In this document: positions 1 through 22,488 of the stretch, one piece after another
Position numbering within the stretch: position 1 is the stretch's first letter
Layout: the number at the start of each line of letters is the position of its first letter
Assembly: GCA_016935915.1 (NCBI GenBank)
Contig: JAFGQB010000116.1
Span: 1-32,554, forward strand
Direction of reading: 5' to 3'
From: Spirochaetota bacterium
GTDB taxonomy: Bacteria > Spirochaetota > GWE2-31-10 > JAFGQB01
DNA length: 32,554 nucleotides
The notes under the pieces: generated by a model
What the model saw: only the letters and a program-made list of their open reading frames with translations
Database searches by the model: none
What the model was told of the DNA's origin: nothing
Made by a program: the position numbers and the translations under genes

Positions 1-303
1 GTGCAGAAGTGAACTTCCGTTAGAATTTATTACTTTTAGATCAGCGCCTGATTTTATCAGAAATTCATAAACCTCTTTTTTGCCAGGCGTATCTTCACCC
101 GAAAGTGCTCTGGAGAGGGGAGTGGAACCAAAATTTGAAGAACTTGCATTAATATCTGCTCCCTTTTCTATAAGTTTTTTAACTTCATCCAAATTCCCCT
201 TTTCAGCAGCTTTAATTAAAGCTTTGTTAAGACTTTCGTTATTTGCCGAATAAGATGAAAATAAAACAAATAAAAACATAATAATAAAAATAGATCTTTT
301 CAT
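1..303 (-). CDS. Ankyrin-repeat protein with N-terminal signal peptide; the gene's 3' end is cut by the window edge
   Basis: Reverse-strand ORF starts at the ATG (cat at 301-303) preceded by a GGAGGA RBS (tcctcc 306-311). Translation begins MKRSIFIIMFLFVLFSSYSANNESLNKALIKAAEKGNLDEVKKLIEKGADINASSSNFGSTPL..., a hydrophobic signal peptide followed by canonical ANK repeat signatures (GxLxxVKxLIxxGADINA, TPL). Confidence 0.7.
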   Translation of the reverse strand, partial: MKRSIFIIMFLFVLFSSYSANNESLNKALIKAAEKGNLDEVKKLIEKGADINASSSNFGSTPLSRALSGEDTPGKKEVYEFLIKSGADLKVINSNGSSLLH

Positions 304-439
304 ATTTCCTCCTGTCTATTGCTTTAAGTCATTGTTATACTTATATATTAATAAAAAAAATCAAGAATTTTTAAGATTATTATTGATGATAACCTATATT
401 CTTGATTTTTTAAATATTTATTTTTTTAATTATATAAAT

Positions 440-1288
440 TTATTTTTTTGAAATCATTTCTGTTATATCCATTAAGGTCGTTCCCTGTCCCATTACAGTA
501 GGCAGTATTCCATTCCATTTCTCTATCCATAGTTTTTGAATAAGCTGTGGTGTTATAGTGGTTCTTTGAAGCTCCTGTTCTCTTGCCTGTCCCTCTGCCT
601 GGGTAATCCTTGCTTCTTTCTGATATTTTGCCTGTTCAGCCTTGTTTTTTTCAGCCTCGATTTTTACCGCTTCGATCTGCTTTGCTTCAATTGCTTTTAC
701 ATATTCTTCAGCAAATTTAATCTCACGAATTCCTACACTATCCAGGATTATACCATTATCATTATATACTGGACTTAATTTATCTTCAATCCTTATTTGT
801 ACTTCTTGAACATTACCTGTATAAAGCTGTTCTGCATTAAATTCTCTTGGAATATTTCTAATCCAGATTCTTGATTCGGTTTTAACAATTCTTTCTACAA
901 TATCATCAAGTCTTCCGATATTATTGGCAATCCATGTTACTTTATTCGAATCAACACTAAATCTTACAGTATAATAAATATTTACCTGCTGTCCATCTTT
1001 AGTATTTGTATCTACAGGGAAATCTATATAATCAGCTCTACTATTTCCCTGTCTAGCTTCTGCAGTAGTTTCATAGATTATTTTTTTAGTGTTATAAGAT
1101 ATTGTATTATTGATAAACGGAAGAATAAAATTTAAACCAGGATACAGTACTTTTCCGGTAACCTTGCCAAACCTTGTCAATACATGAACGCTGCCGGCTG
1201 GAATAATTCTTATCATAGAGCCGACAACAAATATAGAAATAATGATAATAATGATAATTACAATAATTGTTTTTTTTAAATTAGCCAT
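440..1288 (-). CDS. SPFH/Band-7 family protein, prohibitin-like (HflC/HflK-type), with a single N-terminal TM anchor
   Basis: 282 aa. The N-terminal hydrophobic anchor is IIVIIIIIIISIFVV. The SPFH core reads RFGKV...LNFILPFI...VD..T.D.Q.V.I...V.F.V, followed by a C-terminal coiled-coil rich in EA/KQ (AKQIEAVKIEAEKNKAEQAKYQKEARITQAEGQAREQE) that is typical of prohibitin/HflK. AGGAG RBS 7 nt upstream. Confidence 0.8.
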   Translation of the reverse strand: MANLKKTIIVIIIIIIISIFVVGSMIRIIPAGSVHVLTRFGKVTGKVLYPGLNFILPFINNTISYNTKKIIYETTAEARQGNSRADYIDFPVDTNTKDGQQVNIYYTVRFSVDSNKVTWIANNIGRLDDIVERIVKTESRIWIRNIPREFNAEQLYTGNVQEVQIRIEDKLSPVYNDNGIILDSVGIREIKFAEEYVKAIEAKQIEAVKIEAEKNKAEQAKYQKEARITQAEGQAREQELQRTTITPQLIQKLWIEKWNGILPTVMGQGTTLMDITEMISKK

Positions 1289-1453
1289 ATTTTCTCCTTT
1301 AATTAAATGAAATATTATATAGTATTAATTTTCGTAATAGTAAGATTATAAACTTTAAATTTATTTATATTATTTAGATTTATTTAAATGCTATATTGTT
1401 TATACTTATAGGATGATATAATTATTTTTTATTCATCAATAATTAAAAACTTA

Positions 1454-1488
1454 AATAAAAAAACCTCTCTCGCATGATTTGAGAGAGG
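1454..1488 (-). terminator. Rho-independent terminator downstream of asnA (minus strand)
   Basis: Hairpin cctctctc (1464-1471) / gagagagg (1481-1488) with a 9-nt loop. On the minus-strand transcript it is followed directly by a U-run (plus-strand A-run 1454-1463). Confidence 0.7.
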
Positions 1489-1514
1489 TGATAAGGATAT
1501 TCAATAAATTCATA

Positions 1515-2672
1515 TTACTCTAATACATGTATATTTTTTTTGGAACATATATCTTTTAACTCTTGAGGCCATATAGATACTGTTACTTCGCCCAGATGAG
1601 CTGTTCTTAAAAGGTACATAAATGTACGTGCCTGACCGATACCGCCGCCTATGGATAATGGTATCTGGTCATTTAAAATAGCTTTATGATAAGGCAGTTT
1701 CAAGAAGTCAGTCTGACCGGTAATTTCAAGCTGTTTTCTTAATGTATCCTTTGTAACACGAATGCCCATGGAAGTTAATTCATGCCTTCGTCTTGTTACA
1801 GGATTCCATACTAAGATATCTCCATTAATGCCGTGCATTGGTTTACCATCATCAGAAACTGTTTCTGTTACCCAGTCATCATAATCAGCAGCCCTCATTT
1901 CATGAGGATAACCGTCTTTCAATGTCCAGCCGATACCGATTATAAATACTGCTTTATATTTTTGAACAACTAAGGTTTCCCTTTGTTTGCGGGGTAGATC
2001 TGGATACATATCAAGAATCTCCTCTGCATGAAAGAATGTGAGTTCTTCAGGAATTTCTGTATATTTATCGGTTTTAAGTTCAGGCCAGTTTTCAATCACC
2101 AGCTTGCCTGCACCGTATATTACCTTCCAGATTTTCTGAACAACTTCTTTTAAAAATTTTAAGTTTCGCTGATCTTTTGTGATTGCTCTTTCCCAATCCC
2201 ACTGATCCACATAACAGCTGTGATCATGATCAAGAAAATAATCTTTTCTTATTGCGCGCATGTCAGTGCATATACCTTCTCCGACTTTGCAGTCAAACTG
2301 CTTTAAAGCCATTCGCTTCCATTTGGTAGCTGCCTGAACGACCTGAGCATGGATTGGTTTATCGAGTCCTAAGCCGCAATTAAACTCAATGGGAGTTCTT
2401 GAACCATCCCTGTCAAGATAGTCGTTTACACCACTTTCACGTGATACCATGAGAGGCACCTGTACCATTGTGAGATTTAATTCTTTGCACAAGTTTTTTT
2501 CAATATAGTCTTTGATTACATAAACTGCTTTCATTCTCTCAAGCGGAGGAAGAAGCGGTTTATAGTCGTTTGGTAGAATTTTATCGACCTCTTCATAAGT
2601 GCTTACTCCCGGTCCTGCCAGATCTGCTTCTTTGCCTAAATTTTTCATCTCTTCATTTACTTTTTTATTCAT
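1515..2672 (-). CDS. asnA: Aspartate--ammonia ligase (asparagine synthetase A) with a ~46-aa N-terminal extension
   Basis: 385 aa. Contains AsnA hallmark blocks VDQWDWER, GDILVWNPV, SSMGIRV and GGGIGQAR, and is collinear with E. coli AsnA from M47 onward (MKAVYVIKDY vs MKTAYIAKQ). A strong GGAGGT RBS 5 nt before the 2672 ATG supports the long form; the internal M47 has no RBS. Confidence 0.85.
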   Translation of the reverse strand: MNKKVNEEMKNLGKEADLAGPGVSTYEEVDKILPNDYKPLLPPLERMKAVYVIKDYIEKNLCKELNLTMVQVPLMVSRESGVNDYLDRDGSRTPIEFNCGLGLDKPIHAQVVQAATKWKRMALKQFDCKVGEGICTDMRAIRKDYFLDHDHSCYVDQWDWERAITKDQRNLKFLKEVVQKIWKVIYGAGKLVIENWPELKTDKYTEIPEELTFFHAEEILDMYPDLPRKQRETLVVQKYKAVFIIGIGWTLKDGYPHEMRAADYDDWVTETVSDDGKPMHGINGDILVWNPVTRRRHELTSMGIRVTKDTLRKQLEITGQTDFLKLPYHKAILNDQIPLSIGGGIGQARTFMYLLRTAHLGEVTVSIWPQELKDICSKKNIHVLE

Positions 2673-2745
2673 TTTTACCTCCAGTAAAAATTACAGATAA
2701 ACTTCTGGATAATTTATACAATTAAATATATAAAAAAGTCAATTA

Positions 2746-4140
2746 TTAAAACTTTACCTTGCCGCTTATCTTATACTTCTGAATATAACCAGAGTTTGTT
2801 GAGCCGAACTCTCCGGGATACCATGTATTATTGACGATTTCCCAGCCGAGAGGGTAGCTTGCAGAAATAGCAATGCTGAACGCCTGAAATGGCTCTATGT
2901 CAATGATAAAAGATAAAAGGGCGGACTGGTCATCAATGCCGAACAGATAACTTGCACTCAATGAAACATATGTATTAATGATGTATTTTACAAGACCGAA
3001 AATATAGTTATGCCTCAGGAAATAGAGAGGTTTTTTACTTTCGTCAAAAAGAGATAACCTGTTATAAGTATCTGTCTTTTTCCAGTCATTGCTTATATAT
3101 AATTCCCCTATGTCCTTTTCATCAAAGTCTAGCATACCGCTTCCATAAAAGAGATATTCTATTAATAGGTAGAATTTTGAATCTGTATTTGCTACAGGTA
3201 TCGTATAGTCTAATCCGATACTTGCCTCCAGTCCTCGGAAAAAGTATAGCTCTTTTCCATAATAGTTTTTTTCGCGTATTGTTTTCTGATCAAGCCTGTA
3301 TAAAATTTCAGTAAAAAGACCGATCTCAACATCAGCTTTCATGCTGAAACCGAATATATGCGAATAATCATTATTTACTGAGTCTGCAAGACCTATATCT
3401 GATGGTTTTTGCAGATATGATATTTCGGGCAGAAATAGAGAATATAAAAATTCAAAATTAAATCTGTCAACTGTAAAGTTTGTTGCACTCCCGAACTTAA
3501 ATCCCCAGCCGTTCTGCTGAATAGGATCATCCGGTGCTATTGCAAACAGTTCAATGCTCCATAAATCCGCAGGATAAAACGTTGTTTTCAGGGCTATCTT
3601 GCCTTGAGGTCTTGCATTGGGATTGAACGGATCAACAGGATTAAATATATCCATTGGCTTGAAAAAATAACTGTAGCCTCTGGCTATTCTAATCAATCCG
3701 GTCTCAATGTCGACTTCAGTTGTGCTAACTTTAAAAAATAACCTTTCGAGATCTAATGACCCTACATATGTTGATTTGTAATAAAAAGGAATCGAAAAAT
3801 AATTATTACGTATCAGTTTGTATTCAACAGGATCGATCAGCATTGAGATCGCTGTTTGTGCATAAAAAATTTTATATTGATCCGTATAATTTCCTGAAAA
3901 AGTATTGACGTTGAATGCTATACCAAAAGATATGAAATCATTGATTCTGCTTGTTATCTTAAGGTTTGCATAATTGTTAACACCCCAGCTGTATAACCCT
4001 ATGTCATTATATTTATATTCCCTCTTGTGAGTTGAGTCAAATGTTGATTCAAGTTCCCCGTAAAAGTTAACCGATGATTTTGCTGAAATATTAATTAAAC
4101 AAAATAAAGTGATTGATATTGTCAGAATTTTTTTTATCAT
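2746..4140 (-). CDS. Outer-membrane beta-barrel protein (hypothetical) with signal peptide
   Basis: 464 aa. N-terminal signal peptide MIKKILTISITLFCLINISA. The sequence is rich in alternating aromatic/hydrophobic beta-strand patterns (Y/F/W/G rich) and ends with the C-terminal residues ...GKVKF, a terminal Phe typical of OMP barrels. It sits 27 nt downstream of the LolA-like gene on the same strand. Confidence 0.55.
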   Translation of the reverse strand: MIKKILTISITLFCLINISAKSSVNFYGELESTFDSTHKREYKYNDIGLYSWGVNNYANLKITSRINDFISFGIAFNVNTFSGNYTDQYKIFYAQTAISMLIDPVEYKLIRNNYFSIPFYYKSTYVGSLDLERLFFKVSTTEVDIETGLIRIARGYSYFFKPMDIFNPVDPFNPNARPQGKIALKTTFYPADLWSIELFAIAPDDPIQQNGWGFKFGSATNFTVDRFNFEFLYSLFLPEISYLQKPSDIGLADSVNNDYSHIFGFSMKADVEIGLFTEILYRLDQKTIREKNYYGKELYFFRGLEASIGLDYTIPVANTDSKFYLLIEYLFYGSGMLDFDEKDIGELYISNDWKKTDTYNRLSLFDESKKPLYFLRHNYIFGLVKYIINTYVSLSASYLFGIDDQSALLSFIIDIEPFQAFSIAISASYPLGWEIVNNTWYPGEFGSTNSGYIQKYKISGKVKF

Positions 4141-4167
4141 GATAATTTTTCCGTTATTTAACTATAT

Positions 4168-4920
4168 TTATCTGCTTAATCTTTTTAAACTGAACGCATC
4201 ATCGGGTATTTGTACATTCATTTTAATATTTTTCATTTTAAATAATGTTCTTGAATCTTTTCTTAATAGATCCTTTATCTGCATTTCTGTGGCAAAATAT
4301 TTATTGCCTATCCATTCAGCATCAAGCAGAAGAAATTCTTTTAATTTTGCACCTGATAAAGCAAATCTTTCAATTTTCAATGCAGCAAAGGTTTCCTTGT
4401 CAACCCAGATAAGCTCTTTGGGATATGATACTGTTTTCTTTTTTGCGTTGAGTTCCAGAAGCCAAACATCTTTACCTTTGAATTTAGTGTCTGAGTCAAA
4501 TTTTATCTGATCGATAATTTTTGCATTATACTGACTTTCCAGTGTTTCATTTTCAATGGCATCTTCATAAGAAAGATCTGACCCCATCATTGACTCTCTG
4601 AGCATATGACCTGTAATGGGGATGACTTTTTCTGTATCATCGGAATAATAAAACAGATTACCATCTTTCTTCATATATTTTGTCCCAAGATCATCAGGAT
4701 TTGTAAACTCGATATAATAGTTTAATCTTCCCTTTGCATATGATGTAAATGTCTTTATTATTTTTTTCCCCGTTATGAATATTGTCATGTCTCCTTCATA
4801 CTGAATGGCATTGAAAACTTCATTGTTATCAAGTTTTCTGATTATTGTCAATGCATCCTGTGAAAAAGCATTTTGCAGTATAAATAGCGCCCAAAAAAAT
4901 ATCATTGATTTTAATTTCAT
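4168..4920 (-). CDS. LolA-like outer-membrane lipoprotein-sorting protein (periplasmic, signal peptide)
   Basis: 250 aa. Signal peptide MKLKSMIFFWALFILQNAFSQ. The size, the aromatic-rich composition and the position immediately downstream of a MacB/FtsX-type ABC transporter match the 'outer membrane lipoprotein-sorting protein' (LolA-like) family that is usually encoded with such transporters. AAGGAGA RBS. Confidence 0.5.
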   Translation of the reverse strand: MKLKSMIFFWALFILQNAFSQDALTIIRKLDNNEVFNAIQYEGDMTIFITGKKIIKTFTSYAKGRLNYYIEFTNPDDLGTKYMKKDGNLFYYSDDTEKVIPITGHMLRESMMGSDLSYEDAIENETLESQYNAKIIDQIKFDSDTKFKGKDVWLLELNAKKKTVSYPKELIWVDKETFAALKIERFALSGAKLKEFLLLDAEWIGNKYFATEMQIKDLLRKDSRTLFKMKNIKMNVQIPDDAFSLKRLSR

Positions 4921-4941
4921 TCTTTTCTCCTTATTAATTAT

Positions 4942-6627
4942 TTATCTTCTTAATGCTTCAACCGGTTCAATAAACGCCGATTTTAATGACGGTATTATAG
5001 TACATGCTGAGGTCAGTAGTGAACCGAACAAAAAGCTGGAAAGAAGTATCATAAATGAAAATTTTACAAAAATTGTATTGGTAACAGGGAACTCTATTCC
5101 TCCCATCATTGCTTCCATGCTTACAGGCATATAGGATAGGATAAGTGTTGTAATACCTCCGATAAATGTTCCGAAAAAAGCACCTATAACACTTAAAAAG
5201 AAAGCTTCAAGAAAGAATACTATGATTATTTCGTGTCTTTTCATTCCGAGAGCTCCCATCATACCGATTTCTTTGATCCTCTCATGTATTACCATTAATA
5301 CTGTGTTTATTATAAGAAATGAAGCTACAATTAAAAACACTGCATAAATTATATAATACATCAATTCAAATGAATTAAACATAGCTAAAAATGGAAATTG
5401 AGTCCAGTCTTTAATAACAAGCTCAGGATTGTTAAATTTTAAAGATATTTCCTGTTTAATATTTCCTATGTCTTTTAAATTTTCCGCAAATACAAATATG
5501 CTTTGAGTTTTATTTCTTAATGATGCTAATTTCTGCATTCTTTCATATGGTATGATGAGCATGGATTCATCTATTGTTATATAATCATATTCAAAAACTC
5601 CAGTAATTCTTGGGTCTGAGTATTTATCCGAATACTGGCTTGATAAGATTTTAAAAGGGATTCTGAGTTCCAGAGCGGATTTAATGTATGAAAGCAGTTC
5701 CTCATTTTTTTTTAAATCATTTTTAATATTATAAACTTCATTGTCTGCATCATATTGATAAGATTTTAAAAATGTTTCCTTCATATAATCAAATATTAAT
5801 AGATATTCAACAGTATTGGCAAAATTACCTATTCTTTCCGGTAGACTTTTTACATCAATGTTCATGAACAAGTTTATGAGGTCCAAATATTTTATTTTTT
5901 CAATTTTATTTAATCTTTTCACCTCTTTTTTTGGAAGGTTTTGATAATTGAAAAGAGTGAGCTTATATGATTTTAATGACTCGTCATATTTATAGCAGTC
6001 TTTCATCAATGTTGCTTCTTCCTTATCGATATTGTTGATAAGCCATTCAAATTCATACTTGTCAATTACTGTCCATATGATTTCCATCTTTTTTGCCAGC
6101 CTGTAACCTATGGCGCATTCATTTTCATTTTTATCGGGATATCTTCCGATTAAAAGACCATTGCTTTTTCTTGTAAAATTGTAATATCCGTATTTAATTT
6201 TATCATCTACTGATTGCAGAATATCATCGATTTTTACACCTGCGATTATCCCGTGTTTTACTTTACTGTTTGTAAAAGTCCCGTATGACAGTATCCTCGG
6301 AGTGACTCTTTTTACTCCTTTGATTTTTTTTATTTCATCAATATAGTAATCCGGATTTTCAACAGGATACCATACAGGCATAAAATTTTCTTCCTTTTCA
6401 TAATCCTTTGTCGTTATTTTAATATGACCTGATTCAAATGTTGTTGCAATAAGCTTCATGCTGTCCATCATGCCTTCCACAAAAGCCATAAAGAAAACTA
6501 TCAACAAGACAGCCAGACCTACTGCAGCCATGCTTAATATTGATCTTCTTGTGTTTCTGAATATATTCCTATATGCAATTTTAATCAAATAAATAAAACT
6601 GGTTAAAATATTGTTCCCCTTATTCAT
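4942..6627 (-). CDS. ABC transporter permease, FtsX/MacB-type, with a large periplasmic domain
   Basis: N-terminal TM after the Arg-rich AYRNIFRNTRRS. Large extracytoplasmic domain (~400 aa). C-terminal FtsX 3-TM module (FLIINTVLMVIHERIKEIGMMGALGMKRHEIIIVFFLEAFFLSVIGAFFGTFIGG). The start is set at the ATG at 6627 (MNKGNN...) because a GGAGGA RBS lies 5 nt upstream; the longer ORF (to 6660) would overlap the upstream gene and has no RBS. Confidence 0.8.
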   Translation of the reverse strand: MNKGNNILTSFIYLIKIAYRNIFRNTRRSILSMAAVGLAVLLIVFFMAFVEGMMDSMKLIATTFESGHIKITTKDYEKEENFMPVWYPVENPDYYIDEIKKIKGVKRVTPRILSYGTFTNSKVKHGIIAGVKIDDILQSVDDKIKYGYYNFTRKSNGLLIGRYPDKNENECAIGYRLAKKMEIIWTVIDKYEFEWLINNIDKEEATLMKDCYKYDESLKSYKLTLFNYQNLPKKEVKRLNKIEKIKYLDLINLFMNIDVKSLPERIGNFANTVEYLLIFDYMKETFLKSYQYDADNEVYNIKNDLKKNEELLSYIKSALELRIPFKILSSQYSDKYSDPRITGVFEYDYITIDESMLIIPYERMQKLASLRNKTQSIFVFAENLKDIGNIKQEISLKFNNPELVIKDWTQFPFLAMFNSFELMYYIIYAVFLIVASFLIINTVLMVIHERIKEIGMMGALGMKRHEIIIVFFLEAFFLSVIGAFFGTFIGGITTLILSYMPVSMEAMMGGIEFPVTNTIFVKFSFMILLSSFLFGSLLTSACTIIPSLKSAFIEPVEALRR

Positions 6628-6652
6628 AGTTTCCTCCGATACGGTTTCTTTA

Positions 6653-8419
6653 TCACTCAAATCTTAAAGCATCTACTATGGACATTTTTACTGCTTTTAA
6701 AGCAGGGAAAAAAGCAGTAAATGCGGCAATTATTGTCGCAATAATTGGTGAAGCTATTATTGTGTGAAAATTCCATGCTCCTCTGAAAATACCTACTACT
6801 CTGTAACCGAAATTTTCCATATTAGTTTCTGCAAGTATATTGGTATAGTCGATTCCGTAATAAATGATCCAATAGTCCAATACCAGTCCTAAAATTATTC
6901 CGATAAAGGAACCTATAAAACCTATTAGTCCGGCTTCATATAAGAATAACTTTATTATATCGAAATCCCTCATACCGTTGGCTCTAAGCATTCCTATCTC
7001 TTTGGTTCTTTCAAAAATAGCCATGAGCATTGTATTTGCAATACCCATAATTGCAAGTAAAAATAGTATGCCTATCATGATATTTGTTGTTACTATATCT
7101 CCTGCCGATGCAGCAAGGTAATCTTTTGCAACATCCTGCCAGTTAACCACAGTTAAATTATCAGGAAGTTTATTGCCCAGAATATTTTTAATATATTTTG
7201 CAGTTTCATCCTTGCCCGGCAGGGAGTATTCGCTGAAACCTTTTTTTCTTATGCATATCTCTGTAATTGCTCCTTCAAGCATAATACCTTTATTATCCTG
7301 CAAAATATCCAGCGGTAGATATGCAACATTACCGTTAATGGCTGGATTTGGGGAATTAATAATGCCGGCAACGGTTATATCAATTAATTGATGAATGTGT
7401 TTGATTCTGCCTTTTTCATCCTTTTTATCTATTGTCACAGAGCATCTTACAACATCACCTATTTTTACTTTTAGGTCTTTTGCTCCCCTGACTCCAAGCA
7501 GACAAGCGAAACTTCCATTTTCAATGAAATTGTAATAATCTGCTGATTTTAATGCATCTATAATATTATTCGTATAATCTCTTTCCAAAACCCTTTTTAT
7601 GGATCTGAATTTTAAATTTGCCTTATCAAGCTTTTTTTCATATGACTTAAGCTTATTAATGGAAATAAATTTTTTATAATTGTTTAAAGTATTATTGAAA
7701 TTTTTTATTATATATTTATTTATAAAATCTGGTTTATCATAGTTTTTATCTGTTTTTTTTATCAATCCATTGGTAAGTCCGTTTTCTTTTATATAACTGA
7801 TTTTATTGTTCAATTCTTCAATTTTTAATTTTATGTTTTGTATTTTATCATTCTCATCAGTATTGATGTTTTTATAATAATAAGTATCATTTTTAAAATT
7901 CAATTCATAAGCATTCATCAAATTCTTTTTTAAATTTAAATTGTTGATTTCAGGAAGTATCTTGTTTTCAAATATATATTTTGATAATTTGTAAGGGGGT
8001 TCAGAGTATTTATAGTATTTAAATACTTTTTTTTCCATTTCAGGATCAGCACCTATGAACATAAAAGGAAGTTCTATTTCCGGGCTAAGAAGTGATCCGG
8101 TAAAAACAGCTCTCGGAGCTCCAACATAACCTGCTTCATCAAGAGCTTTTAGGATTTTTTCATAATCATTAAAAGTTTCATACATGGGAAGTTCATCTCT
8201 TTTTTCAAAATATGATTTTGAGTAAATTTTTGAACTTCCGGTTTCATAATTTACAAGATTTCTTTTTGAATCAAGATTCATGCCTAAAAGCCATGAATCC
8301 ATCCAGATATAAATGGAAAGACCGATTGTAATTGCAATGGCTGTAAGTATTGTCTTTACTCTGTGTCTTCCAAGGTTTTTAAAAGCAATTACAAGAAGAT
8401 TTATCTTTTCACCTTTCAT
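6653..8419 (-). CDS. ABC transporter permease, FtsX/MacB-type, with a large periplasmic domain containing a coiled-coil
   Basis: 588 aa. N-terminal TM (ILTAIAITIGLSIYIWM). A ~400-aa periplasmic region contains a heptad coiled-coil (NDKIQNIKLKIEELNNKISYIKENG). C-terminal FtsX module (ILFLLAIMGIANTMLMAIFERTKEIGMLRANGMRDFDIIKLFLYEAGLIGFIGSFIG). AGGAGG RBS. The start overlaps the ATPase stop (ATGA). Confidence 0.8.
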   Translation of the reverse strand: MKGEKINLLVIAFKNLGRHRVKTILTAIAITIGLSIYIWMDSWLLGMNLDSKRNLVNYETGSSKIYSKSYFEKRDELPMYETFNDYEKILKALDEAGYVGAPRAVFTGSLLSPEIELPFMFIGADPEMEKKVFKYYKYSEPPYKLSKYIFENKILPEINNLNLKKNLMNAYELNFKNDTYYYKNINTDENDKIQNIKLKIEELNNKISYIKENGLTNGLIKKTDKNYDKPDFINKYIIKNFNNTLNNYKKFISINKLKSYEKKLDKANLKFRSIKRVLERDYTNNIIDALKSADYYNFIENGSFACLLGVRGAKDLKVKIGDVVRCSVTIDKKDEKGRIKHIHQLIDITVAGIINSPNPAINGNVAYLPLDILQDNKGIMLEGAITEICIRKKGFSEYSLPGKDETAKYIKNILGNKLPDNLTVVNWQDVAKDYLAASAGDIVTTNIMIGILFLLAIMGIANTMLMAIFERTKEIGMLRANGMRDFDIIKLFLYEAGLIGFIGSFIGIILGLVLDYWIIYYGIDYTNILAETNMENFGYRVVGIFRGAWNFHTIIASPIIATIIAAFTAFFPALKAVKMSIVDALRFE

Positions 8420-9102
8420 TTTTTTACATCCTCCTGGATTTTACCATCTCTTAATTTTATTATTCGATTTGCAAAATCCATGACCAGCTTATCGTGAGTT
8501 GAAAATAAAAAGGTTACTTTTTTATCCTGATTTAACTTTTTCATTATTTCAAGAACTTCCGTTGCGGTTATAGAGTCCAGATTTGCCGTAGGTTCATCGG
8601 CAAGGATCAGTTTTGGCGCTTTGATCAGCGCTCTGGCTATTGCAACTCTCTGCTGCTGACCTCCTGACATTTCTGTCGGTCTTCTTTTTTCCATGCTTTC
8701 AAGCCCTACAACTTTTAGAGATTCATAGGATTTTTCTTTTATTTCTTCACTGTTATAACCTAAAAGCGTTAAAGGGAAAGCTACGTTTTCAAATGCAGTC
8801 AAAACAGGTATCAGGTTATATGCCTGAAAAATAAATCCCATTTTTTCTCTTCTAAGGTAAGCAAGTTCATCTTTTTTCATATTCCCAACAGATGTATTAT
8901 CAAATAATACTTCTCCGCTTGTCGGTGTATCCAGACAGCCTATAAGGTGCAGAAGTGTTGACTTACCGCTTCCTGAAGGTCCTACAATTGCGGTAAACTC
9001 GCTTTCATTTATTGTCATATCAATGCCTCTTAGAGCATTTACAGTGATTTTTTTTATCTGATAATCCTTAATCAGTTTTTTTGTTTCAACTATTTTACTC
9101 AT
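8416..9102 (-). CDS. ABC transporter ATP-binding protein (MacB/LolD-type ATPase)
   Basis: Walker A GPSGSGKST, Q-loop, ABC signature MSGGQQQRVAIARAL and Walker B LILADEPTANLD are all present. The start is set at MSKIVETKKL (9102) because AGGAGG lies 5 nt upstream; the ORF-track start at 9126 lacks an RBS. Confidence 0.9.
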   Translation of the reverse strand: MSKIVETKKLIKDYQIKKITVNALRGIDMTINESEFTAIVGPSGSGKSTLLHLIGCLDTPTSGEVLFDNTSVGNMKKDELAYLRREKMGFIFQAYNLIPVLTAFENVAFPLTLLGYNSEEIKEKSYESLKVVGLESMEKRRPTEMSGGQQQRVAIARALIKAPKLILADEPTANLDSITATEVLEIMKKLNQDKKVTFLFSTHDKLVMDFANRIIKLRDGKIQEDVKK

Positions 9103-9160
9103 TTTATCCTCCTGTAATATTTGCATGCATGGAACAGCCGTGCATGTTCCTTACAATTGT

Positions 9161-10249
9161 TTATTTTTTATTTTTTTTACTCTTCTTAACCTCTGATAAA
9201 GCCTGAATACCTGCAAAGTTGCCGAGGTTCATATTGTCAAGTATAGTTGCAGGGACCATCATTGTCGAGTTGCCTGCCTTTAAACCTTCAAATAATATGT
9301 TCATGCTCCTTAATTTTAAGGCGGTATCATTATTTTTATATATTTTTGCCGCTTCTTCGAATTTTTTGGCAAGTTCTATTTCCGATTCTCCAAGCACTAT
9401 TCTTGACTCTTTTTCTCTTTCTGCCTGTGCTTTTTTGCTCATTGTGTCCTGAAGGTGCTGAGGAATGATAATTTCCGTAATGTCAATAGATTGTATGGTT
9501 ATACCCCACTCATTTGTTCTTTTATCAACGATTTTTCTGATCTCTTCTTCGGCTTCCTCTCTTTTTTCCAGAAGTTTTGTCAAGGTTGTTTTCCCGATTG
9601 CATCTCTAAGCGCAGCCTGAGAGCTCAAAACAACGGCATCTGTATAATTTTCAACTTCCAAAATAGCTTTTTCAGGATCCCATATCATCCAGAAAGCCAG
9701 AGCATCTACTGTGACTGCAACAGAATCCTTGGTAAGGGTTGTTTCTGCCACAAAATCAGTTGCACGTATTCTTAAGTCTACTATTTTATTCACAATATCA
9801 GTGAACGGCAATATTAAGAACAAACCAGGACCTTTTATCTTGTTGAATTTCCCGAATCTCAAGATCACTGCTCTTTCCCATTCTTTGGTCTGCTGGAATA
9901 TCGGTGCTAAAAAAACTCCGAAAGATACAGGAACAATGAAATAAAATGAATTGAAACCCTTCCACCAGAAAAAAGCCAATACTCCGATAAAATTTATTTT
10001 TACAATCATTTCCCATTTACCGATCATAATACCCAAAATTCCAAATATAGGGAATAATAGAAAAATTACAAACTCTTCACTGTTCGTTATTCTTTCGCAA
10101 TAATAGAAATATAATATAAATCCAATTGTACTGAAAAAAAGAAATATGAAAGAATTGATCGGATTTATACTGAAATCCTTTTCAAAGAAACTTTTTTTAC
10201 TGATATTCTTTATTAAATAATCTTTTTTTTCCTTAAAAAAATCAAACAT
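9161..10249 (-). CDS. SPFH/Band-7 (stomatin/YqiK-like) protein with an unusual ~110-aa polytopic N-terminal membrane region (about 4 predicted TM helices)
   Basis: 362 aa. Four hydrophobic segments (SFIFLFFSTIGFILYFYY, FVIFLLFPIFGILGIMIG, INFIGVLAFFWW, FYFIVPVSFGVFLAPIF) precede a canonical SPFH core (ERAVILRFGKF...GPGLFLILPF...DLRIRATDF...TKDSVAVTVDALAFW...) and a C-terminal coiled-coil. GGAGGA RBS. The start lies 4 nt after the GntR stop, so the two are co-transcribed. Confidence 0.8.
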   Translation of the reverse strand: MFDFFKEKKDYLIKNISKKSFFEKDFSINPINSFIFLFFSTIGFILYFYYCERITNSEEFVIFLLFPIFGILGIMIGKWEMIVKINFIGVLAFFWWKGFNSFYFIVPVSFGVFLAPIFQQTKEWERAVILRFGKFNKIKGPGLFLILPFTDIVNKIVDLRIRATDFVAETTLTKDSVAVTVDALAFWMIWDPEKAILEVENYTDAVVLSSQAALRDAIGKTTLTKLLEKREEAEEEIRKIVDKRTNEWGITIQSIDITEIIIPQHLQDTMSKKAQAEREKESRIVLGESEIELAKKFEEAAKIYKNNDTALKLRSMNILFEGLKAGNSTMMVPATILDNMNLGNFAGIQALSEVKKSKKNKK

Positions 10250-10252
10250 ATA

Positions 10253-10630
10253 TTATTCCTCCATAAAATTAAAATTTTTAAGTATTCTGATGCAATCTTC
10301 TTTATTAAATCCAATTTCATTCATTTGAATTAAGAATTGTGCGCTGATCTTTTCTGCTTTCTGTATTTTTTCAATAGAACTAATATCGATTTTTTTTTCC
10401 GATATAAAAGTGCCGTATCCTACTTGAGTATTTACAAATCCCCTTATTTCAAGTTCATTATATGCCTTGGCTACTGTATTTGGATTTATTTTTAGGTCCA
10501 CAGCTAATTGTCTTACAGTAGGTAGTTTTTGTCCTGGTTTAAATTTTCCTATGCTCATATTATATTCTACCCATTGAATTATCTGTCTATACACCGGTAT
10601 TCCGCTTTTTGTATCAATCGTTAAAATCAT
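10253..10630 (-). CDS. GntR-family transcriptional regulator, YtrA subfamily (short, wHTH only)
   Basis: 125 aa. GntR wHTH: IPVYRQIIQWVEYNMSIGKFKPGQKLPTVRQLAVDLKINPNTVAKAYNELEIRGFVNTQVGYGTFI. A ~50-aa C-terminal tail with no effector domain is the YtrA subfamily hallmark. It is the first gene of an ABC-transporter operon, as with B. subtilis ytrA. Confidence 0.85.
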   Translation of the reverse strand: MILTIDTKSGIPVYRQIIQWVEYNMSIGKFKPGQKLPTVRQLAVDLKINPNTVAKAYNELEIRGFVNTQVGYGTFISEKKIDISSIEKIQKAEKISAQFLIQMNEIGFNKEDCIRILKNFNFMEE

Positions 10631-10651
10631 TAATTTCCCTATATTTGTCTT

Positions 10652-10696
10652 ATTGTACTATTTATATAATACAATTATATGTGTATTAGTACAATT
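10652..10696. promoter_or_regulatory. Candidate YtrA/GntR operator: perfect 9-bp inverted repeat ATTGTACTA-N27-TAGTACAAT, nested around a 7-bp palindrome ATATAAT-ACA-ATTATAT
   Basis: Seen directly in sequence. attgtacta at 10652-10660 and tagtacaat at 10688-10696 are exact reverse complements. The inner palindrome is at 10664-10680. It lies 22-66 nt upstream of the GntR start codon, in the divergent region shared with the PilZ-Spt gene. Confidence 0.4.
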
Positions 10697-10782
10697 TGTC
10701 AAGTATTTTTTTAAAAAAAAAATTAATTTTTTTTTTAAAATTATTTATTTTTAAAAAATATTTTTTTTTAATGTTAAATCTG

Positions 10783-10791
10783 TGTTATAAT
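10783..10791 (+). promoter_or_regulatory. Extended -10 promoter element (TGnTATAAT) for the plus-strand lipid cluster
   Basis: tgttataat at 10783-10791 matches the extended -10 consensus exactly. It is about 38 nt upstream of the 10829 ATG. No good -35 was found, which is consistent with an extended -10 promoter. Confidence 0.35.
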
Positions 10792-10828
10792 TTATAAAAT
10801 ACCGGATTTAATAAAAATTGAGAAAAAA

Positions 10829-12436
10829 ATGATTGATATTAAAAGAAGAGTACCAAGATTTGACATTAAGTTCGAATTACTCAGTAATTTACTTAATGGC
10901 AAAGGTATAAATATAAGTCAGACAGGCATAGGATTTTTAACAGAGGAAGAAATTATTCCTGCAGATAATATTCCGTTTGAAACTGAAATAAAAGGCTACA
11001 TTTTCAGTGATAAAATTTACAAAATTAAAGGAACAGGAAATTTATTGTATTCGAAAAAACTTATAGGTCAGAATGAATTATACAGGAACGGATTAAAATT
11101 CGTAAATATGGATGATGATTCGAAAGAGGCGTTATTCAATCTTTTAAATGATATCAGACTATTTAAAAGTGATATAAAAGATGAGAATACCATCATGACA
11201 CTTGCCGATTTTTACTATTATCCCTCAGATGATTTATTTGCCAAGACCAGTATTTTCAGTGAATATATTGATAAGAATTTCCTGATAAATCATAAAATGT
11301 TTTCTTATTATCTTGATTCATCATGCAGTGCTGTAGGCAATATGATCAACAGAAAAACAAAAGACAAAAAAGAGATGATAATGTTGGGGTCAAATAATTA
11401 TCTGGGACTTGCGACTCATCCCGAGGTTATAAAAGCAGGCATTGAAGCACTAAAAAAATATGGCGCTGGAAACGGCGCTGGTGCAATGGTTGGAGGAACT
11501 TTAGGCATACATAAACAGCTTGAAGAGGAGCTGGCTGATTTTATCGGAAAAGAAGAGGCAATGATATTTAATTCGGGATATTCTGCCAACATAGGAATAT
11601 TATCAGGAATATTAAGACCTAATGATGTGGTAATTAATGATCAATATAATCATGCGAGTATTTTTGACGGATGTCGTTTGAGTCAGTCAAAATTACTGGT
11701 TTTTAAACATAATGATATTAACAGTCTTGAAAAAATCGTTAAAAGAGCAAAATATTATTTTAACGGATGTATAATAGTTATTGATGGTATTTACAGTACA
11801 GACGGAAGTCTTTCTCCTCTGGATGAAATATACAGGATTGCCAGAACTTATGACTGCAAAATAATGGTCGATGAAGCCCATGCTCTAGGCATATTAGGTA
11901 AAAAAGGAAGGGGAACAACTGAATATTTTAATTTAACAGATAAAATTGATATTATCATGGGAACCTTAAGCAAATCTTTAGGATCTTCAGGAGGATTTGT
12001 AGCATCAAGTAAAAATGTTATAGAATATTTAAGATTTTATGCAAGGTCATATTTATTTTCAACAAGTTTTCCCCCTTCAGTTGCCGCAACTGTTTTAAAA
12101 GCATTGCATCTTATTAAAACTGACAACAGTATAAGAGAAAAACTTCATTTCAATATTAGTTATTTTATTAATGGATTAAAAAAGCTTAATTTGGATATAG
12201 GTGAACCAAAATCGGCAGTTGTACCTATTTTTATTTCTGATCAAAAATTACTTTTTAAGATTTCATCTTTATTATTTGATAATGGATTATTTCATAATGT
12301 CATGATATATCCTGCTGTACCTATGGGCGGATCATTGTTAAGATTCGGAATTACAACATCTTTAGATGAAAATATTTTAAAAAAAGCTCTTGTAATAATA
12401 GAAAAAGTTTTAAAAGAAGTCGGATTTTTAAAGTAA
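10829..12436 (+). CDS. Serine palmitoyltransferase-like alpha-oxoamine synthase (PLP-dependent, class II aminotransferase) with an N-terminal PilZ-like domain
   Basis: 535 aa. The C-terminal ~350 aa are an AONS/Spt core: LGSNNYLGLATHPEVIKAGIEALKKYGAGNGA, DEAHALGILGKKGRGT, and the PLP-lysine block GTLSKSLGSSGGFVASS (compare Sphingomonas Spt GTFSKSLASLGGFVAG). The N-terminal ~110 aa carry both PilZ signature motifs in the canonical order and spacing: RRVPR (RxxxR) at aa 6-10 and NISQTG ([D/N]xSxxG) at aa 28-33. Confidence 0.8.
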   Translation: MIDIKRRVPRFDIKFELLSNLLNGKGINISQTGIGFLTEEEIIPADNIPFETEIKGYIFSDKIYKIKGTGNLLYSKKLIGQNELYRNGLKFVNMDDDSKEALFNLLNDIRLFKSDIKDENTIMTLADFYYYPSDDLFAKTSIFSEYIDKNFLINHKMFSYYLDSSCSAVGNMINRKTKDKKEMIMLGSNNYLGLATHPEVIKAGIEALKKYGAGNGAGAMVGGTLGIHKQLEEELADFIGKEEAMIFNSGYSANIGILSGILRPNDVVINDQYNHASIFDGCRLSQSKLLVFKHNDINSLEKIVKRAKYYFNGCIIVIDGIYSTDGSLSPLDEIYRIARTYDCKIMVDEAHALGILGKKGRGTTEYFNLTDKIDIIMGTLSKSLGSSGGFVASSKNVIEYLRFYARSYLFSTSFPPSVAATVLKALHLIKTDNSIREKLHFNISYFINGLKKLNLDIGEPKSAVVPIFISDQKLLFKISSLLFDNGLFHNVMIYPAVPMGGSLLRFGITTSLDENILKKALVIIEKVLKEVGFLK

Positions 12437-12545: not shown

Positions 12546-13991
12546 ATGGATATTATAGATTTTTTAGAAAAGAATTTATGCCGTTATTCTGACAAGAGAG
12601 CATTGGTTGATGTTGATAATAATATTTGTTTAACTTATAAAAATTTATATGATAATATTTTATATTATGCAGATTATTTAAAAAAAAGCGGCATAAGGGA
12701 AAATCAGAAAGTCGGTTTATACCTTAATAATTCTATCATACATATAATTTTATTATATAGCTTGTTATATTTAAAAGCAGTACCGGTTCTAATTGATTCA
12801 AGAAACACATTAAGGGAAATAAAAGAATGTCTGATAAGTTCAGATACAAAGGTAATAATTTATGAAAATGCTAACTTTGAAATAAATGAATTATACAGTA
12901 CAGCAGATAAGATTTTTGTCATAAAAGAAAGTATAGAAGATTTTAATATCAAAGATAATAAAATAAGCTGTATAATAAAAAATTTCAATAATGATTATAA
13001 TAATAAAAAATTAAAAAAGAGTAAAAAATTAACTTACTTTATACTTTTTACCTATCGAGGAACAGGACAAGTTCTGCCTGTTATACTTTCAGAAAGCGCA
13101 ATAATAAACAGTCTATTCAGTAATTTTTATTTGAATAAAAATATTAAAGATATTATTTTATTGTTGATTTTACCGATTCATCATATTTTTGCATTAACAT
13201 GCAATTTACTTAGCCCTTTATCGCTTGGAGTAACAATAATATTGACCAATAAAATACAGCCTTATAAAATTTTAAATATTATTGAAGAATATAGGATTAC
13301 TTATTTAATATTAGTACCGACTTTAGTTTATGTCCTTTTAAATTCAATAAAAAAAAATAAATATAATCTTATGAGCTTAAGAAACGGAATTGTAGGCGGA
13401 AACAAATTTCAGAATGATCTTTATAAAGATTGGCATGAAGCATTAAATTGTATCCTGCTGCAGGGATACGGCTTGACAGAAACATGTCCTGTAATCTGTA
13501 ATCAATGGAATAACAATAAACCAGGTTCAATCGGGAAATTAATGAAAGGTGTAAAAGCCAGATTAATTGATAAAAATGGTAATTATAATGATAAGGAAGG
13601 TGTTTTATGGATCAAATCTAAAATGATATTATCTAAATATTTAAATAATGAAAAAGAAAATAAAGAATATATTGATAATGGATGGTTTAATACAGGCGAT
13701 ATTATTGCAAAAGATAGTGATGATTTTTATTATTTTATAAAAACAATTAAAAACATTGCAAAAGTAGGAGGATCAACAGTAGATTTAAAAGAAGTTAAAA
13801 CTATTATTCAAAAGTTTAATTTTGTACATTCCTGTTTGTTATCAGTAGAACATGATAAATTATGGAATGATAAGATAATTTGTCATTTAACTTTAAGGGA
13901 AAATATAGATAAAGTTGATATATATAATTATTTTAAATCTGTTTTAGCATCATTTAAACTGCCCGGTAATATTATTATTAATTCAATTTAA
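12546..13991 (+). CDS. ANL-superfamily adenylate-forming enzyme (acyl-ACP synthetase / fatty-acyl-AMP ligase-like), with degenerate motifs
   Basis: 481 aa. Clear ANL motifs are YGLTET (A5, YGxTE) and GWFNTGD (A7, GWxxTGD), with the hinge region IAKVGGSTVDLKEV. However, the P-loop A3 reads TYRGTGQVLPV instead of TSGTTGxPKG (no Lys), and the C-terminus ends ...FKLPGNIIINSI where A10 PKTxSGK is expected (no catalytic Lys). Confidence 0.65.
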   Translation: MDIIDFLEKNLCRYSDKRALVDVDNNICLTYKNLYDNILYYADYLKKSGIRENQKVGLYLNNSIIHIILLYSLLYLKAVPVLIDSRNTLREIKECLISSDTKVIIYENANFEINELYSTADKIFVIKESIEDFNIKDNKISCIIKNFNNDYNNKKLKKSKKLTYFILFTYRGTGQVLPVILSESAIINSLFSNFYLNKNIKDIILLLILPIHHIFALTCNLLSPLSLGVTIILTNKIQPYKILNIIEEYRITYLILVPTLVYVLLNSIKKNKYNLMSLRNGIVGGNKFQNDLYKDWHEALNCILLQGYGLTETCPVICNQWNNNKPGSIGKLMKGVKARLIDKNGNYNDKEGVLWIKSKMILSKYLNNEKENKEYIDNGWFNTGDIIAKDSDDFYYFIKTIKNIAKVGGSTVDLKEVKTIIQKFNFVHSCLLSVEHDKLWNDKIICHLTLRENIDKVDIYNYFKSVLASFKLPGNIIINSI

Positions 13992-16055: not shown

Positions 16056-16058
16056 TAA

Positions 16059-17210: not shown

Positions 17211-17447
17211 AATGATTAAATTTATAGTATAATAATATTCAAAGAAATTAAATATTATTTTAAAAAGTAAAAAAATTTTGCTGTTTTTTTAAAATTTCTA
17301 TTTTGTATTATATCAAAACAGCAAGGATCGCTGGTTTTATTATTGCTGAGTTAAACAAACGGTCATTTTTTTTACGATTTTTATAGATAAAATCAACATT
17401 GATTTTAAATTTATTTTAATTTAATAAAAAGATTTCTGGAAATTATT

Positions 17448-17681: not shown

Positions 17682-17727
17682 CATTTTTATTAATATTATC
17701 ATATTGATTAAAGTAATTTCATAAAAT

Positions 17728-22425: not shown

Positions 22426-22488
22426 CTTTCCGATTATTTTTTAGTTATAAATATAGACAAAAAATTATTTATTAATCAGAAATGTTTT

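Follow-up and report, generated by a model that had tools for sequence, protein, structure and literature searches.

What function would bring together, in a single spirochaetal locus, a short GntR repressor, a stomatin with a multi-pass anchor and the parts of an ABC transport route reaching the outer membrane, and does the stomatin belong to the transporter? In the window, the whole stretch of 32,554 nucleotides analyzed here, seven closely packed minus-strand genes (2746-10630) encode in turn a GntR regulator, an SPFH protein, an ABC ATPase, two FtsX permeases, a LolA-like protein and a barrel (Table 1). Every gene lies where the original prediction had placed it, and the tight, often overlapping junctions that it described correspond to gaps of 3, 34, -4, -8, 21 and 27 nt from the head to the tail of the cluster (range -8 to 34 nt). 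No terminator-like match was found in the intergenic spaces of the cluster, and none was predicted in the 73-nt gap between the cluster and asnA. As had been proposed, the set looks like one operon, because a single consensus promoter and a putative operator lie upstream and internal signals have no room; this layout suggests that the seven genes would be co-transcribed. The reading that we favor, whose chances we judge to be about even, is that of a single autorepressed operon of two modules, which would provide an accessory Lol-like route by which cargo that is hydrophobic or lipid-anchored reaches the outer membrane.

Table 1. Features of the seven-gene cluster and of its surroundings, in window coordinates.
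Feature	Position	Strand	Evidence
Second SPFH protein	440-1288		Band_7, E 2.7e-25; one N-terminal TM
Predicted outer-membrane beta-barrel, 464 aa	2746..4140	-	models as 18-strand porin-like barrel
Soluble periplasmic LolA-like protein, 250 aa	4168..4920	-	PF17131 (TP_0789-like), E 1.2e-41
FtsX-type permease 2, 572 aa (TTG start as listed)	4942..6660	-	FtsX, E 4.8e-16; MacB_PCD and FtsX domains
FtsX-type (type VII ABC) permease 1, 588 aa	6653..8419	-	FtsX, E 2.8e-19
ABC ATPase (LolD/MacB/FtsE group), 236 aa	8416..9126	-	ABC_tran, E 2.9e-35
Stomatin-type SPFH protein, 362 aa	9161..10249	-	Band_7, E 4.8e-35
YtrA-type GntR regulator, 125 aa	10253..10630	-	PF00392, E 2.8e-13, residues 14-76
Larger imperfect dyad	10641..10706	.	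20-nt arms, 80% complementary, 26 nt apart
Promoter-like site (sigma-70), TTGACA-17 nt-TATAAT	10674..10702	-	12/12 consensus positions
12-bp palindrome TGTACTAATACA	10682..10693	.	spacer between -35 and -10; putative operator of the YtrA-type repressor

The regulator combines a winged helix-turn-helix GntR domain with a C-terminal part of ~50 aa devoid of a ligand-binding domain, within the total length of ~120-135 aa typical of the YtrA subfamily. The YtrA-type structures 3neu, 4r1h and 4ham of Listeria (125-134 aa) gave full-length matches over residues 2-120, in agreement with the predicted YtrA type, and the best NCBIfam matches were the Rv1152 and PmtR types, both under cut-off. The promoter-like site, which precedes the GntR start codon by 44 nt, obtained the top score within positions 1-11200, and the palindrome TGTACTAATACA in its spacer is the sole perfect match in the window. 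Of 78 related loci, 52 carry this palindrome ahead of the GntR gene with at most one mismatch, compared to 0.7% of control windows, and it was perfect in 7 of 8 independently collected GntR-bearing loci. Its distance to the start codon is almost fixed in many loci, including those of Phycisphaerae and Acidobacteriota. L103 and L116, two loci without GntR for which the upstream sequence was available, lack it in front of the ABC gene. In addition, each arm of the larger dyad carries the half-site TTGTACTA, and the arms bracket the -10 box. We infer from this arrangement that the repressor, lacking a ligand-binding domain, would bind TGTAyTAnTACA in the -35/-10 spacer of the promoter from which it is transcribed, and thereby repress its own operon.

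The SPFH protein is composed of a conserved basic N-tail, four hydrophobic segments (~30-50, 58-76, 81-96 and 102-118), the SPFH domain and a long wall helix. The atypical multi-pass N-terminus announced by the original prediction was recovered by Kyte-Doolittle analysis, which flagged hydrophobic segments in this region, by the conservation of all four segments in 93 homologues, and by the AlphaFold2 helices 30-50, 57-76 and 79-117 (pLDDT 95-97). Residues 1-127 gave no Pfam match. The SPFH domain and long helix come nearest to stomatin, ahead of HflK/C, prohibitin and flotillin. The closest solved relatives are PH1511, QmcA and human stomatin, the last with an E value of 2e-37, compared to 1e-11 for HflK and 8e-4 for prohibitin; human stomatin also ranked first with Foldseek (E 6e-20). 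The same domain and wall helix are found in the stomatin/slipin cages (human stomatin, PH1511 of P. horikoshii, QmcA-YbbJ of E. coli) and in HflK/C-FtsH, and a cage-forming oligomer is expected. By analogy with other stomatins, the protein would probably form a ring-shaped cage on the inner membrane. However, known cages are anchored by one hairpin or one TM, while here four hydrophobic segments follow the conserved basic N-tail and the stomatin anchor aligns with the last of them only. Across the family, the net charge is ~+3.5 for the N-tail and ~+3.9 for the stretch past segment 4, and the third loop is of variable length (5 to 11 aa). Most likely, both the SPFH domain and the basic N-tail lie in the cytoplasm; the single AlphaFold2 helix 79-117, if right, would instead imply three membrane passes and a periplasmic SPFH domain. 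Prokaryotic stomatins usually have an NfeD partner gene in the same operon. Neither the window nor the Gracilinema and Sediminispirochaeta loci showed an NfeD domain in any neighboring gene, and the constant genomic partner of this stomatin is instead the GntR repressor.

The full order, from GntR to barrel, was retrieved in the cultivable Gracilinema caldarium, Sediminispirochaeta bajacaliforniensis and Treponema primitia, in Brucepastera and in many MAGs. It is complete in 22 of 28 testable spirochaete loci and in 8 of the 11 loci anchored on the barrel gene, and the arrangement is not due to chance, since the same order recurs in dozens of independent genomes. The GntR-SPFH pair reaches beyond Spirochaetota to Planctomycetota, Gemmatimonadota and Acidobacteriota and occurs in about 77 of 80 loci, including 26 that are non-spirochaete and devoid of the transporter. 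An adjacent ABC gene was present in none of the 20 testable non-spirochaete loci, and the pair also stands without the transporter in 12 of 48 spirochaete loci, some Treponema among them. It is then followed by DUF3352 proteins in Phycisphaerales, and by MurG and other unrelated genes in a termite-gut Treponema. The ABC-to-barrel module was found without the pair in L103 and L116, preceded in L116 by an XRE regulator. The cluster is thus made of two separable modules, GntR plus stomatin and ABC-to-barrel, and because each of them occurs alone, the conserved partner of the stomatin is the repressor and not the transporter. A full-text literature search returned no description of YtrA with SPFH and incidental mentions only of SPFH with GntR; we found no published account of either the repressor-stomatin pair or the seven-gene cluster.

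This distribution bears on the proposal, already part of the original prediction, that the stomatin organizes the transporter in a membrane microdomain. The multi-pass stomatin would be an integral scaffold whose cage encloses the ABC complex, as HflK/C does for FtsH, and the seven proteins would form one trans-envelope machine. Stomatin-family cages around membrane clients have indeed been solved (HflK/C-FtsH, QmcA-YbbJ, stomatin-aquaporin), the SPFH gene directly precedes the ATPase gene with a gap of 34 nt, and most spirochaete loci keep the seven genes together in the same order. But the transporter-less pairs, the unrelated genes downstream of them and the modules of L103 and L116 that have no pair leave the microdomain unsupported, and we regard this scaffold as unlikely.

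Regarding the transporter, permease 1 displays a first TM (21-42), a periplasmic domain of ~395 aa and three C-terminal TMs, and the periplasmic domain of permease 2 reaches ~360 aa, close to the ~400 aa that had been announced. The extra periplasmic length corresponds to lineage-specific insertions of ~150 aa (permease 1) and ~140 aa (permease 2). Two dissimilar four-TM FtsX-type permeases with the periplasmic domain between TM1 and TM2, together with a separate ATPase, reproduce the layout of LolCDE, also seen in the relatives. The best NCBIfam and PDB matches of the transporter parts are LolD, LolC/E, LolE, LolF and YtrF of B. subtilis, the latter (9o9x) being one of the solved structures that lie closest to the two permeases. 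The ATPase scored 239 bits with the NCBIfam LolD model, below the equivalog cut-off of 307.75, and the two permeases 87.3 and 72.7 bits with the lolCE model, whose cut-off is 362.45. Since these scores are far under the cut-offs, the suggested analogy with Lol is one of architecture and not of orthology. The earlier label "MacB-like" pointed to the right superfamily: MacAB-TolC shares the MacB_PCD and FtsX permease domains and a MacB-like ATPase. "LolCDE-like" is nevertheless more apt, because the ATPase is unfused and encoded by a separate gene, the two permeases differ, and there is neither a MacA-type adaptor nor a TolC-type duct; orthologous clusters, like this one, showed no adaptor or TolC domain. 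A permease coiled coil had also been proposed but received no support: in a crude test, heptad periodicity was no higher than that of shuffled sequence.

The LolA-like periplasmic protein was identified as predicted, with 142.8 bits for a PF17131 gathering cut-off of 30 and a match covering profile positions 4-184 of 184. In Pfam it matches this family only, not LolA proper, and its PDB relatives are 3bk5, 4z48, 3buu and 9tp6. Its leader is of the signal peptidase I type with no lipobox, and 51 of 57 orthologues show a leader end near AFAQ/AFSQ that contains no cysteine. TP0789 of the spirochaete T. pallidum, which gave its name to PF17131, belongs to the same LolA-like family, and its gene also lies beside that of an inner-membrane exporter. 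However, TP0789 is a predicted lipoprotein (PMC5015957), whereas the present carrier is soluble, and the neighboring TP0790 is an RND/AcrB-like pump and not an ABC system (PMC8407342); neither a GntR nor a stomatin nor a dedicated barrel is mentioned for the TP0789 locus in these reports.

The last gene of the cluster encodes a predicted beta-barrel and not a LolB-like lipoprotein. No Pfam or NCBIfam match was obtained for this 464-aa protein, which represents a small family without a Pfam model. The outer-membrane barrel that had been proposed was recovered as a predicted 18-strand, OprD/AlgE-like model, most similar to the substrate-specific channels Occ/OprD, chitoporin and maltoporin; OprD/Occ-type porins are recognized by their Pfam family model as well as by this fold, and the present protein shares only the predicted fold. 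To judge from the model, it resembles substrate-specific diffusion porins as much as exporters. The encoded products span the inner membrane, the periplasm and the outer membrane, as had been claimed.

In type VII ABC transporters, which work as mechanotransducers, substrates are drawn out on the periplasmic side, and LolCDE passes lipoproteins to LolA. In the accessory Lol-like route that we favor, the first module, consisting of the YtrA-type repressor and the stomatin with its four-segment anchor, would be devoted to regulation and membrane state. Because the stomatin gene is so regularly paired with the repressor gene (~77/80 loci), we infer that the protein acts with the repressor and not as a transporter subunit. 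It may sense or buffer the state of the membrane jointly with the repressor, as a co-regulated sensor or scaffold with no obligate or fixed place in the transporter. In the second module, a LolCDE-like machine of two ATPase copies and two dissimilar FtsX permeases would spend ATP to pull a hydrophobic or lipid-anchored molecule from the outer leaflet of the inner membrane. The extracted cargo would be passed to the soluble LolA-like carrier, and from there to the dedicated 18-strand barrel, which would insert it into the outer membrane or let it pass across. Transport of a greasy cargo from the inner membrane to the outer one is thus the probable role of the cluster. No conserved cargo gene adjoins it, and its downstream neighbors vary among the genomes compared.

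The cargo could instead be a membrane-active toxin, such as an antimicrobial peptide, a bile-like detergent or a lipophilic antibiotic, which would release the repressor and be expelled by the type VII pump, with the LolA-like protein binding it in the periplasm and the barrel serving as exit duct. The release of PmtR by phenol-soluble modulins is a model for such a repressor, PmtR is among the best NCBIfam matches of the regulator, and MacB-type pumps confer resistance to peptides and macrolides. An accessory, patchy system under predicted repressor control is also in keeping with detoxification, and ABC exporters that are induced by envelope-active compounds are common targets of YtrA-type regulators, as in the ytr operon of B. 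subtilis (PMC12772383). Efflux nevertheless appears improbable, given that neither a membrane-fusion adaptor nor a TolC-type duct was found in or near the cluster, that the barrel is porin-like and not TolC-like, and that a soluble carrier with a LolA-type hydrophobic cavity is better suited to the hand-over of lipid-like cargo.

A divergent spirochaetal form of the housekeeping Lol pathway (LolCDE and LolA) would account for the LolD, LolC/E and LolE matches, for one ATPase with two dissimilar permeases and for a soluble carrier of the LolA superfamily. We consider it very unlikely: the scores remain far under the equivalog cut-offs, the carrier is a PF17131 protein, and the system appears to be placed behind a repressor. 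Moreover, many Treponema have the GntR-SPFH pair with no such module beside it, and the barrel belongs to a tiny family, which makes the system a poor fit to an essential pathway. Separate canonical Lol genes are described for Borrelia and T. pallidum in two reports (PMC11326224, PMC13078400).

Uptake of a hydrophobic nutrient, for instance fatty acids or sterols, through a porin, a periplasmic binding protein and an ABC importer, is hardly credible, although the barrel most resembles substrate-specific uptake channels (Occ/OprD, chitoporin, maltoporin) and many spirochaetes rely on external lipids, since permeases of the FtsX/MacB type (type VII) offer substrates no path through the membrane, none is known to us to import, and the periplasmic protein is LolA-like and without a substrate-binding-protein fold.

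The accessory Lol-like route can be compared with three described systems. The LolCDE-LolA-LolB pathway of E. coli shares the ATPase gene, the two dissimilar four-TM FtsX-type permeases and a soluble carrier of the LolA superfamily, but its outer-membrane partner is the lipoprotein LolB, whereas the present cluster has an 18-strand barrel, a PF17131 carrier, permease insertions of 140-150 aa, predicted repressor control and a patchy distribution. The nearest published analogue is the BBJ23-BBJ29 cluster of Borrelia, described computationally in 2026 and read in the same way by its authors (PMC13078400). That system associates a type VII ABC transporter and a LolA-like protein with an Omp85-type barrel domain, one permease acting as a homodimer and two TPR chaperones, while the present cluster type has two or three different permeases, an OprD/AlgE-like 18-strand barrel, no TPR proteins, and a YtrA-type repressor with a multi-pass stomatin at its head. 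Finally, ytrGABCDEF of B. subtilis likewise combines a short YtrA-type repressor with an FtsX-type permease, an ATPase and YtrG, a membrane protein of undefined role. It differs by a second, unrelated ABC unit (YtrBCD) and by the absence of an SPFH protein, and its monoderm host implies neither a periplasmic carrier nor an outer-membrane barrel; the transport function of this YtrA-controlled FtsX-type system is not proven (PMC12772383).

This conserved and presumably inducible cluster is a concrete candidate for a system that brings lipoproteins and lipids to the outer membrane of spirochaetes and across it. The repressor-stomatin pair with its conserved putative operator offers a handle on how YtrA-type regulators sense signals without a ligand-binding domain, and on the role of bacterial stomatins that have no NfeD partner. 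A bolder proposal, which we hold to be a long shot, is that GntR and the four-segment stomatin constitute a membrane-state switch shared by several phyla, gating in spirochaetes an accessory Lol-like route whose 18-strand barrel delivers lipid-anchored cargo into the outer membrane or onto its surface. In this switch, the repressor would be under the control of the stomatin cage, which might for example tether it to the membrane via the conserved basic N-tail, a logic comparable to that of PspA/PspF. Spirochaetes to our knowledge lack LolB, and if the proposal is true, the switch and barrel route might supply the step that their lipoprotein or glycolipid export is missing at the outer membrane.

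Lastly, the original prediction had drawn attention to another SPFH gene next to asnA. Neither gene proved to be a conserved part of the cluster, but the SPFH assignment itself is sound, with a clear Band_7 domain behind a single N-terminal TM.

The seven minus-strand ORFs at 2746-10630 of this 32.5 kb contig, from an uncultured Spirochaetes bacterium (GC about 28%), follow one another at spacings of 3, 34, -4, -8, 21 and 27 nt, gaps so small that they leave no room for internal promoters. No terminator-like match was found in the spaces between these genes and none was predicted in the 73-nt gap from the operon to asnA, while an Rfam search of the window returned no match and thus no structured RNA leader. 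Profile searches against Pfam and NCBIfam identified six of the seven products.

Features of the operon and its surroundings, in window coordinates
Feature	Position	Strand	Product	Assignment
Second SPFH gene	440-1288	-		Band_7, E 2.7e-25; single TM
asnA	1515-2672	-		
Barrel	2746-4140	-	464 aa	no match among Pfam or NCBIfam models; modelled with 18 strands
LolA-like protein		-	250 aa	PF17131 (LolA_like, TP_0789-like), E 1.2e-41
FtsX-type permease 2	4942-6660	-		top models LolC/E, scores far under cut-offs
FtsX-type permease 1	6653-8419	-		top models LolC/E, scores far under cut-offs
ABC ATPase		-		top models LolD and MacB
Band 7/SPFH protein (stomatin)	9161-10249	-	362 aa	profile match
GntR regulator	10253-10630	-	125 aa	profile match
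Promoter-like site	10702-10674			TTGACA-17-TATAAT
Palindrome TGTACTAATACA	10682-10693			putative operator
32-nt A/T palindrome	10709-10740			TTTTAAAAAAAAAATT / AATTTTTTTTTTAAAA
Alpha-oxoamine synthase	10829-12436	+		serine palmitoyltransferase/KBL/BioF group
Acyl ligase	12546-13991	+		AMP-binding
Response regulator	15570-16055			
FemAB-like protein	16059-17210			
Radical SAM enzyme	17728-19392			B12-binding
Histidine kinase	19560-22061		833 aa	
Response regulator	22054-22425			
PilZ protein	23295-23618			
FlgM	25464-25748			
HAMP-GGDEF cyclase	26719-27618			
Glycosyltransferases	28275-30188			

Comparison with related loci revealed that the cluster is a fusion of two separable modules, since the GntR-stomatin pair and the ABC-to-barrel genes each occur separately. 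The same GntR-SPFH-ABC-FtsX-FtsX-LolA-like-barrel order was found, from precomputed Pfam labels, in Gracilinema caldarium and Sediminispirochaeta bajacaliforniensis, and also in Treponema primitia, Brucepastera parasyntrophica and many MAGs. Among the 80 genome loci for which the stomatin served as anchor, an ABC gene is adjacent in 36 of the 48 testable spirochaete loci and the full set is present in 22 of 28 testable ones, three more being without a detectable barrel only; the corresponding counts outside the spirochaetes are 0/20 and 0/13. These non-spirochaete loci, from Phycisphaerae, Planctomycetales, Gemmatimonadota, Acidobacteriota and others, nearly all carry the GntR gene directly 5′ of the stomatin gene with no ABC neighbour. 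Downstream of the pair, Phycisphaerales encode DUF3352 proteins and termite-gut Treponema MAGs have unrelated genes, for example those for MurG and a DNA polymerase III subunit (locus L034) or an AIR-synthase-related protein (L030). The second set, 50 metagenome loci anchored on the barrel, has the LolA-like gene directly 5′ of the barrel gene in 35 cases; most of the remainder end at a contig edge, but in at least L087, L088 and L097 the sequence continues 5′ of the barrel gene and gives no LolA-like match. The full set was found in 8 of the 11 barrel-anchored loci with sufficient upstream sequence. Of the other three, L103 and L116 have the ABC-to-barrel genes but lack the pair, in place of which L116 has an XRE-type helix-turn-helix regulator (4635-4979; HTH_3, E 7e-11), and L087 has the barrel gene alone.

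Several variations on the pair were observed. The DUF3352 proteins that follow it are about 610-630 aa long (L016 11019-12905, L063 11081-12913, probably L023 2231-4084); they belong to a family of no assigned function, and a solved relative was not found for them. Some Phycisphaerae have the GntR and stomatin genes separated by an additional ORF of about 170 aa that matches no Pfam model (L032 9408-9917, L060 9420-9935), and the distance between the pair is 0.9-1.6 kb in L058, L062 and L072.

The top-scoring promoter-like site of the first 11 kb is a perfect consensus site located 44 nt 5′ of the GntR start codon. Its -35/-10 spacer contains a palindrome enclosed in a larger dyad, whose arms flank the -10 box. 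With zero or one mismatch, TGTAnTAnTACA (consensus TGTACTAGTACA) occurs in 52 of 78 regions upstream of GntR orthologues, compared to 0.7% of random windows drawn from the same loci, and many of these regions, some of them assigned to Phycisphaerae and Acidobacteriota, have it at a nearly constant distance from the start codon. The perfect palindrome was also present in 7/8 GntR-bearing loci of a second, independently gathered set; L103 and L116, whose sequence extends 5′ of the ABC gene but includes no GntR gene, lack it there. No further repressor site above chance was detected elsewhere in the window. A repressor site within the promoter spacer is a classical autorepression layout, and the conservation pattern suggests that the palindrome is the operator to which the GntR protein would bind as an autorepressor. 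Just 5′ of the -35 box, in a strongly A/T-rich divergent intergenic region, lies a second, perfect 32-nt palindrome, which may be an UP-element, bent DNA or mere low-complexity sequence.

The SPFH protein is nearest to human stomatin (E 2e-37 by sequence, 6e-20 by Foldseek), P. horikoshii PH1511 and E. coli QmcA; HflK/C, prohibitin and flotillin are farther away by both sequence and fold comparison. The alignment to stomatin starts at residue 101, the first 100 residues being extra, and this N-terminus contains no Pfam domain at E values up to 0.05. Four hydrophobic segments were found across 93 homologues (mean Kyte-Doolittle 1.8-2.2), and AlphaFold2, run on the 93-sequence alignment, predicted helices at residues 30-50, 57-76 and 79-117 (pLDDT 95-97). 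Both the four-segment architecture and a D-F-x-hydrophobic-x-P-hydrophobic-N motif right before segment 1 are kept in orthologues of other phyla. The atypical polytopic N-terminus of the original prediction is thus supported, with three or four predicted passes. Given the positive-inside rule, the basic character of the N-tail (6.7 K/R versus 3.2 D/E in the 93 homologues) and of the stretch after segment 4 (5.8 versus 1.9) favors an N-in, C-in orientation that would leave the SPFH domain in the cytoplasm, where other stomatins have it. Segments 3 and 4 are separated in these homologues by a turn of 5 to 11 residues. Because AlphaFold2 joins these two segments into a single helix, the protein may instead make three membrane passes and place its SPFH domain in the periplasm.

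Regarding the transporter, in each permease a single N-terminal TM precedes a long periplasmic domain (about 395 aa in permease 1 and 360 aa in permease 2), which is followed by three C-terminal TMs, and the nearest solved relatives of both are LolF, B. subtilis YtrF, MacB and LolC/E. Their unusual length stems from insertions of about 150 aa in permease 1 and 140 aa in permease 2, which are missing or placed elsewhere in most orthologues. These periplasmic insertions are K/N/I-rich (residues ~145-300 and ~205-345, respectively), and Treponema-type orthologues carry a different one at another position of permease 1. A coiled coil had been announced in permease 1 but was not confirmed, since, by a crude measure, the heptad periodicity of the insertions is no higher than that of shuffled sequence. 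LolCDE-like is a better description than "MacB-like" because neither a membrane-fusion adaptor nor a TolC-type protein was found in the cluster or in the Gracilinema and Sediminispirochaeta loci. Several relatives, including the clade nearest to this contig, have three permease genes rather than two, either in the order ABC-FtsX-FtsX-FtsX-LolA-like-barrel (L005, L006, L086, L091) or with the third FtsX gene placed after the LolA-like gene and before the barrel gene (L007, L089). The LolA-like protein and 51/57 orthologues possess a leader of the signal peptidase I type, which ends near AFAQ/AFSQ, and no lipobox Cys, so that a soluble periplasmic protein is predicted, like LolA and unlike LolB.

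Taken together, we propose that the operon is autorepressed and encodes a LolCDE-like extractor, which would hand a hydrophobic or lipid-anchored cargo to the soluble LolA-like carrier, which would then pass it to a dedicated outer-membrane barrel. This relay rests on the established behavior of type VII ABC transporters and of the Lol pathway. The analogous BBJ23-29 cluster of Borrelia has been given the same reading (PMC13078400). The main alternative function to cargo relay would be the efflux of toxic compounds. The stomatin more likely senses or buffers the membrane state together with the repressor than acts as an obligate scaffold, since its constant partner is the repressor and not the transporter; in spirochaetes it may still be a scaffold of the pump, as originally proposed. 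An anti-phage defence role was rejected, as PADLOC returned generic ATPase/permease similarity only, leaving the stomatin, repressor, carrier and barrel unmatched. The system looks accessory, given its control by a repressor, its patchy distribution, permease and ATPase scores far short of the Lol equivalog cut-offs, and its tiny barrel family.

All components are members of known families or resemble them. [quoted passage not shown] The PF17131 protein TP0789 of T. pallidum is a predicted lipoprotein (PMC5015957), in contrast to the LolA-like protein described here, and its neighbourhood was rejected as the same system because it comprises an RND pump, the adjacent TP0790, and the Lpt proteins TP0784-0786 (PMC8407342). 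The literature searched, which covers part of all journals, contained nothing relevant on YtrA with SPFH or SPFH with GntR, and no published description of the seven-gene spirochaete operon, the porin-like barrel family, the multi-pass stomatin or the pairing of repressor and stomatin, with a conserved putative operator, across phyla.

Divergent from the operon, the alpha-oxoamine synthase, whose extra N-terminal part of about 170 aa gives a weak PilZ match under the cut-off (E 0.0012), is followed by the acyl ligase. The two may form a c-di-GMP-responsive pair for amino-lipid or sphingolipid-like synthesis. They were rejected as a conserved source of cargo because neither recurs beside the cluster in 130 related loci, except for weak ligase matches in L012 and L068. 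On the other side, asnA and the second SPFH gene just downstream of it, correctly noted in the original prediction, were rejected as conserved parts, the downstream genes being different in Gracilinema and Sediminispirochaeta. Among barrel-anchored loci, only L085, the closest relative, has a counterpart of the second SPFH gene, a close homologue (5536-6390) about 2 kb 3′ of the barrel gene; none was found in more distant relatives. The remainder of the window (14239-32401) is rich in signalling genes.
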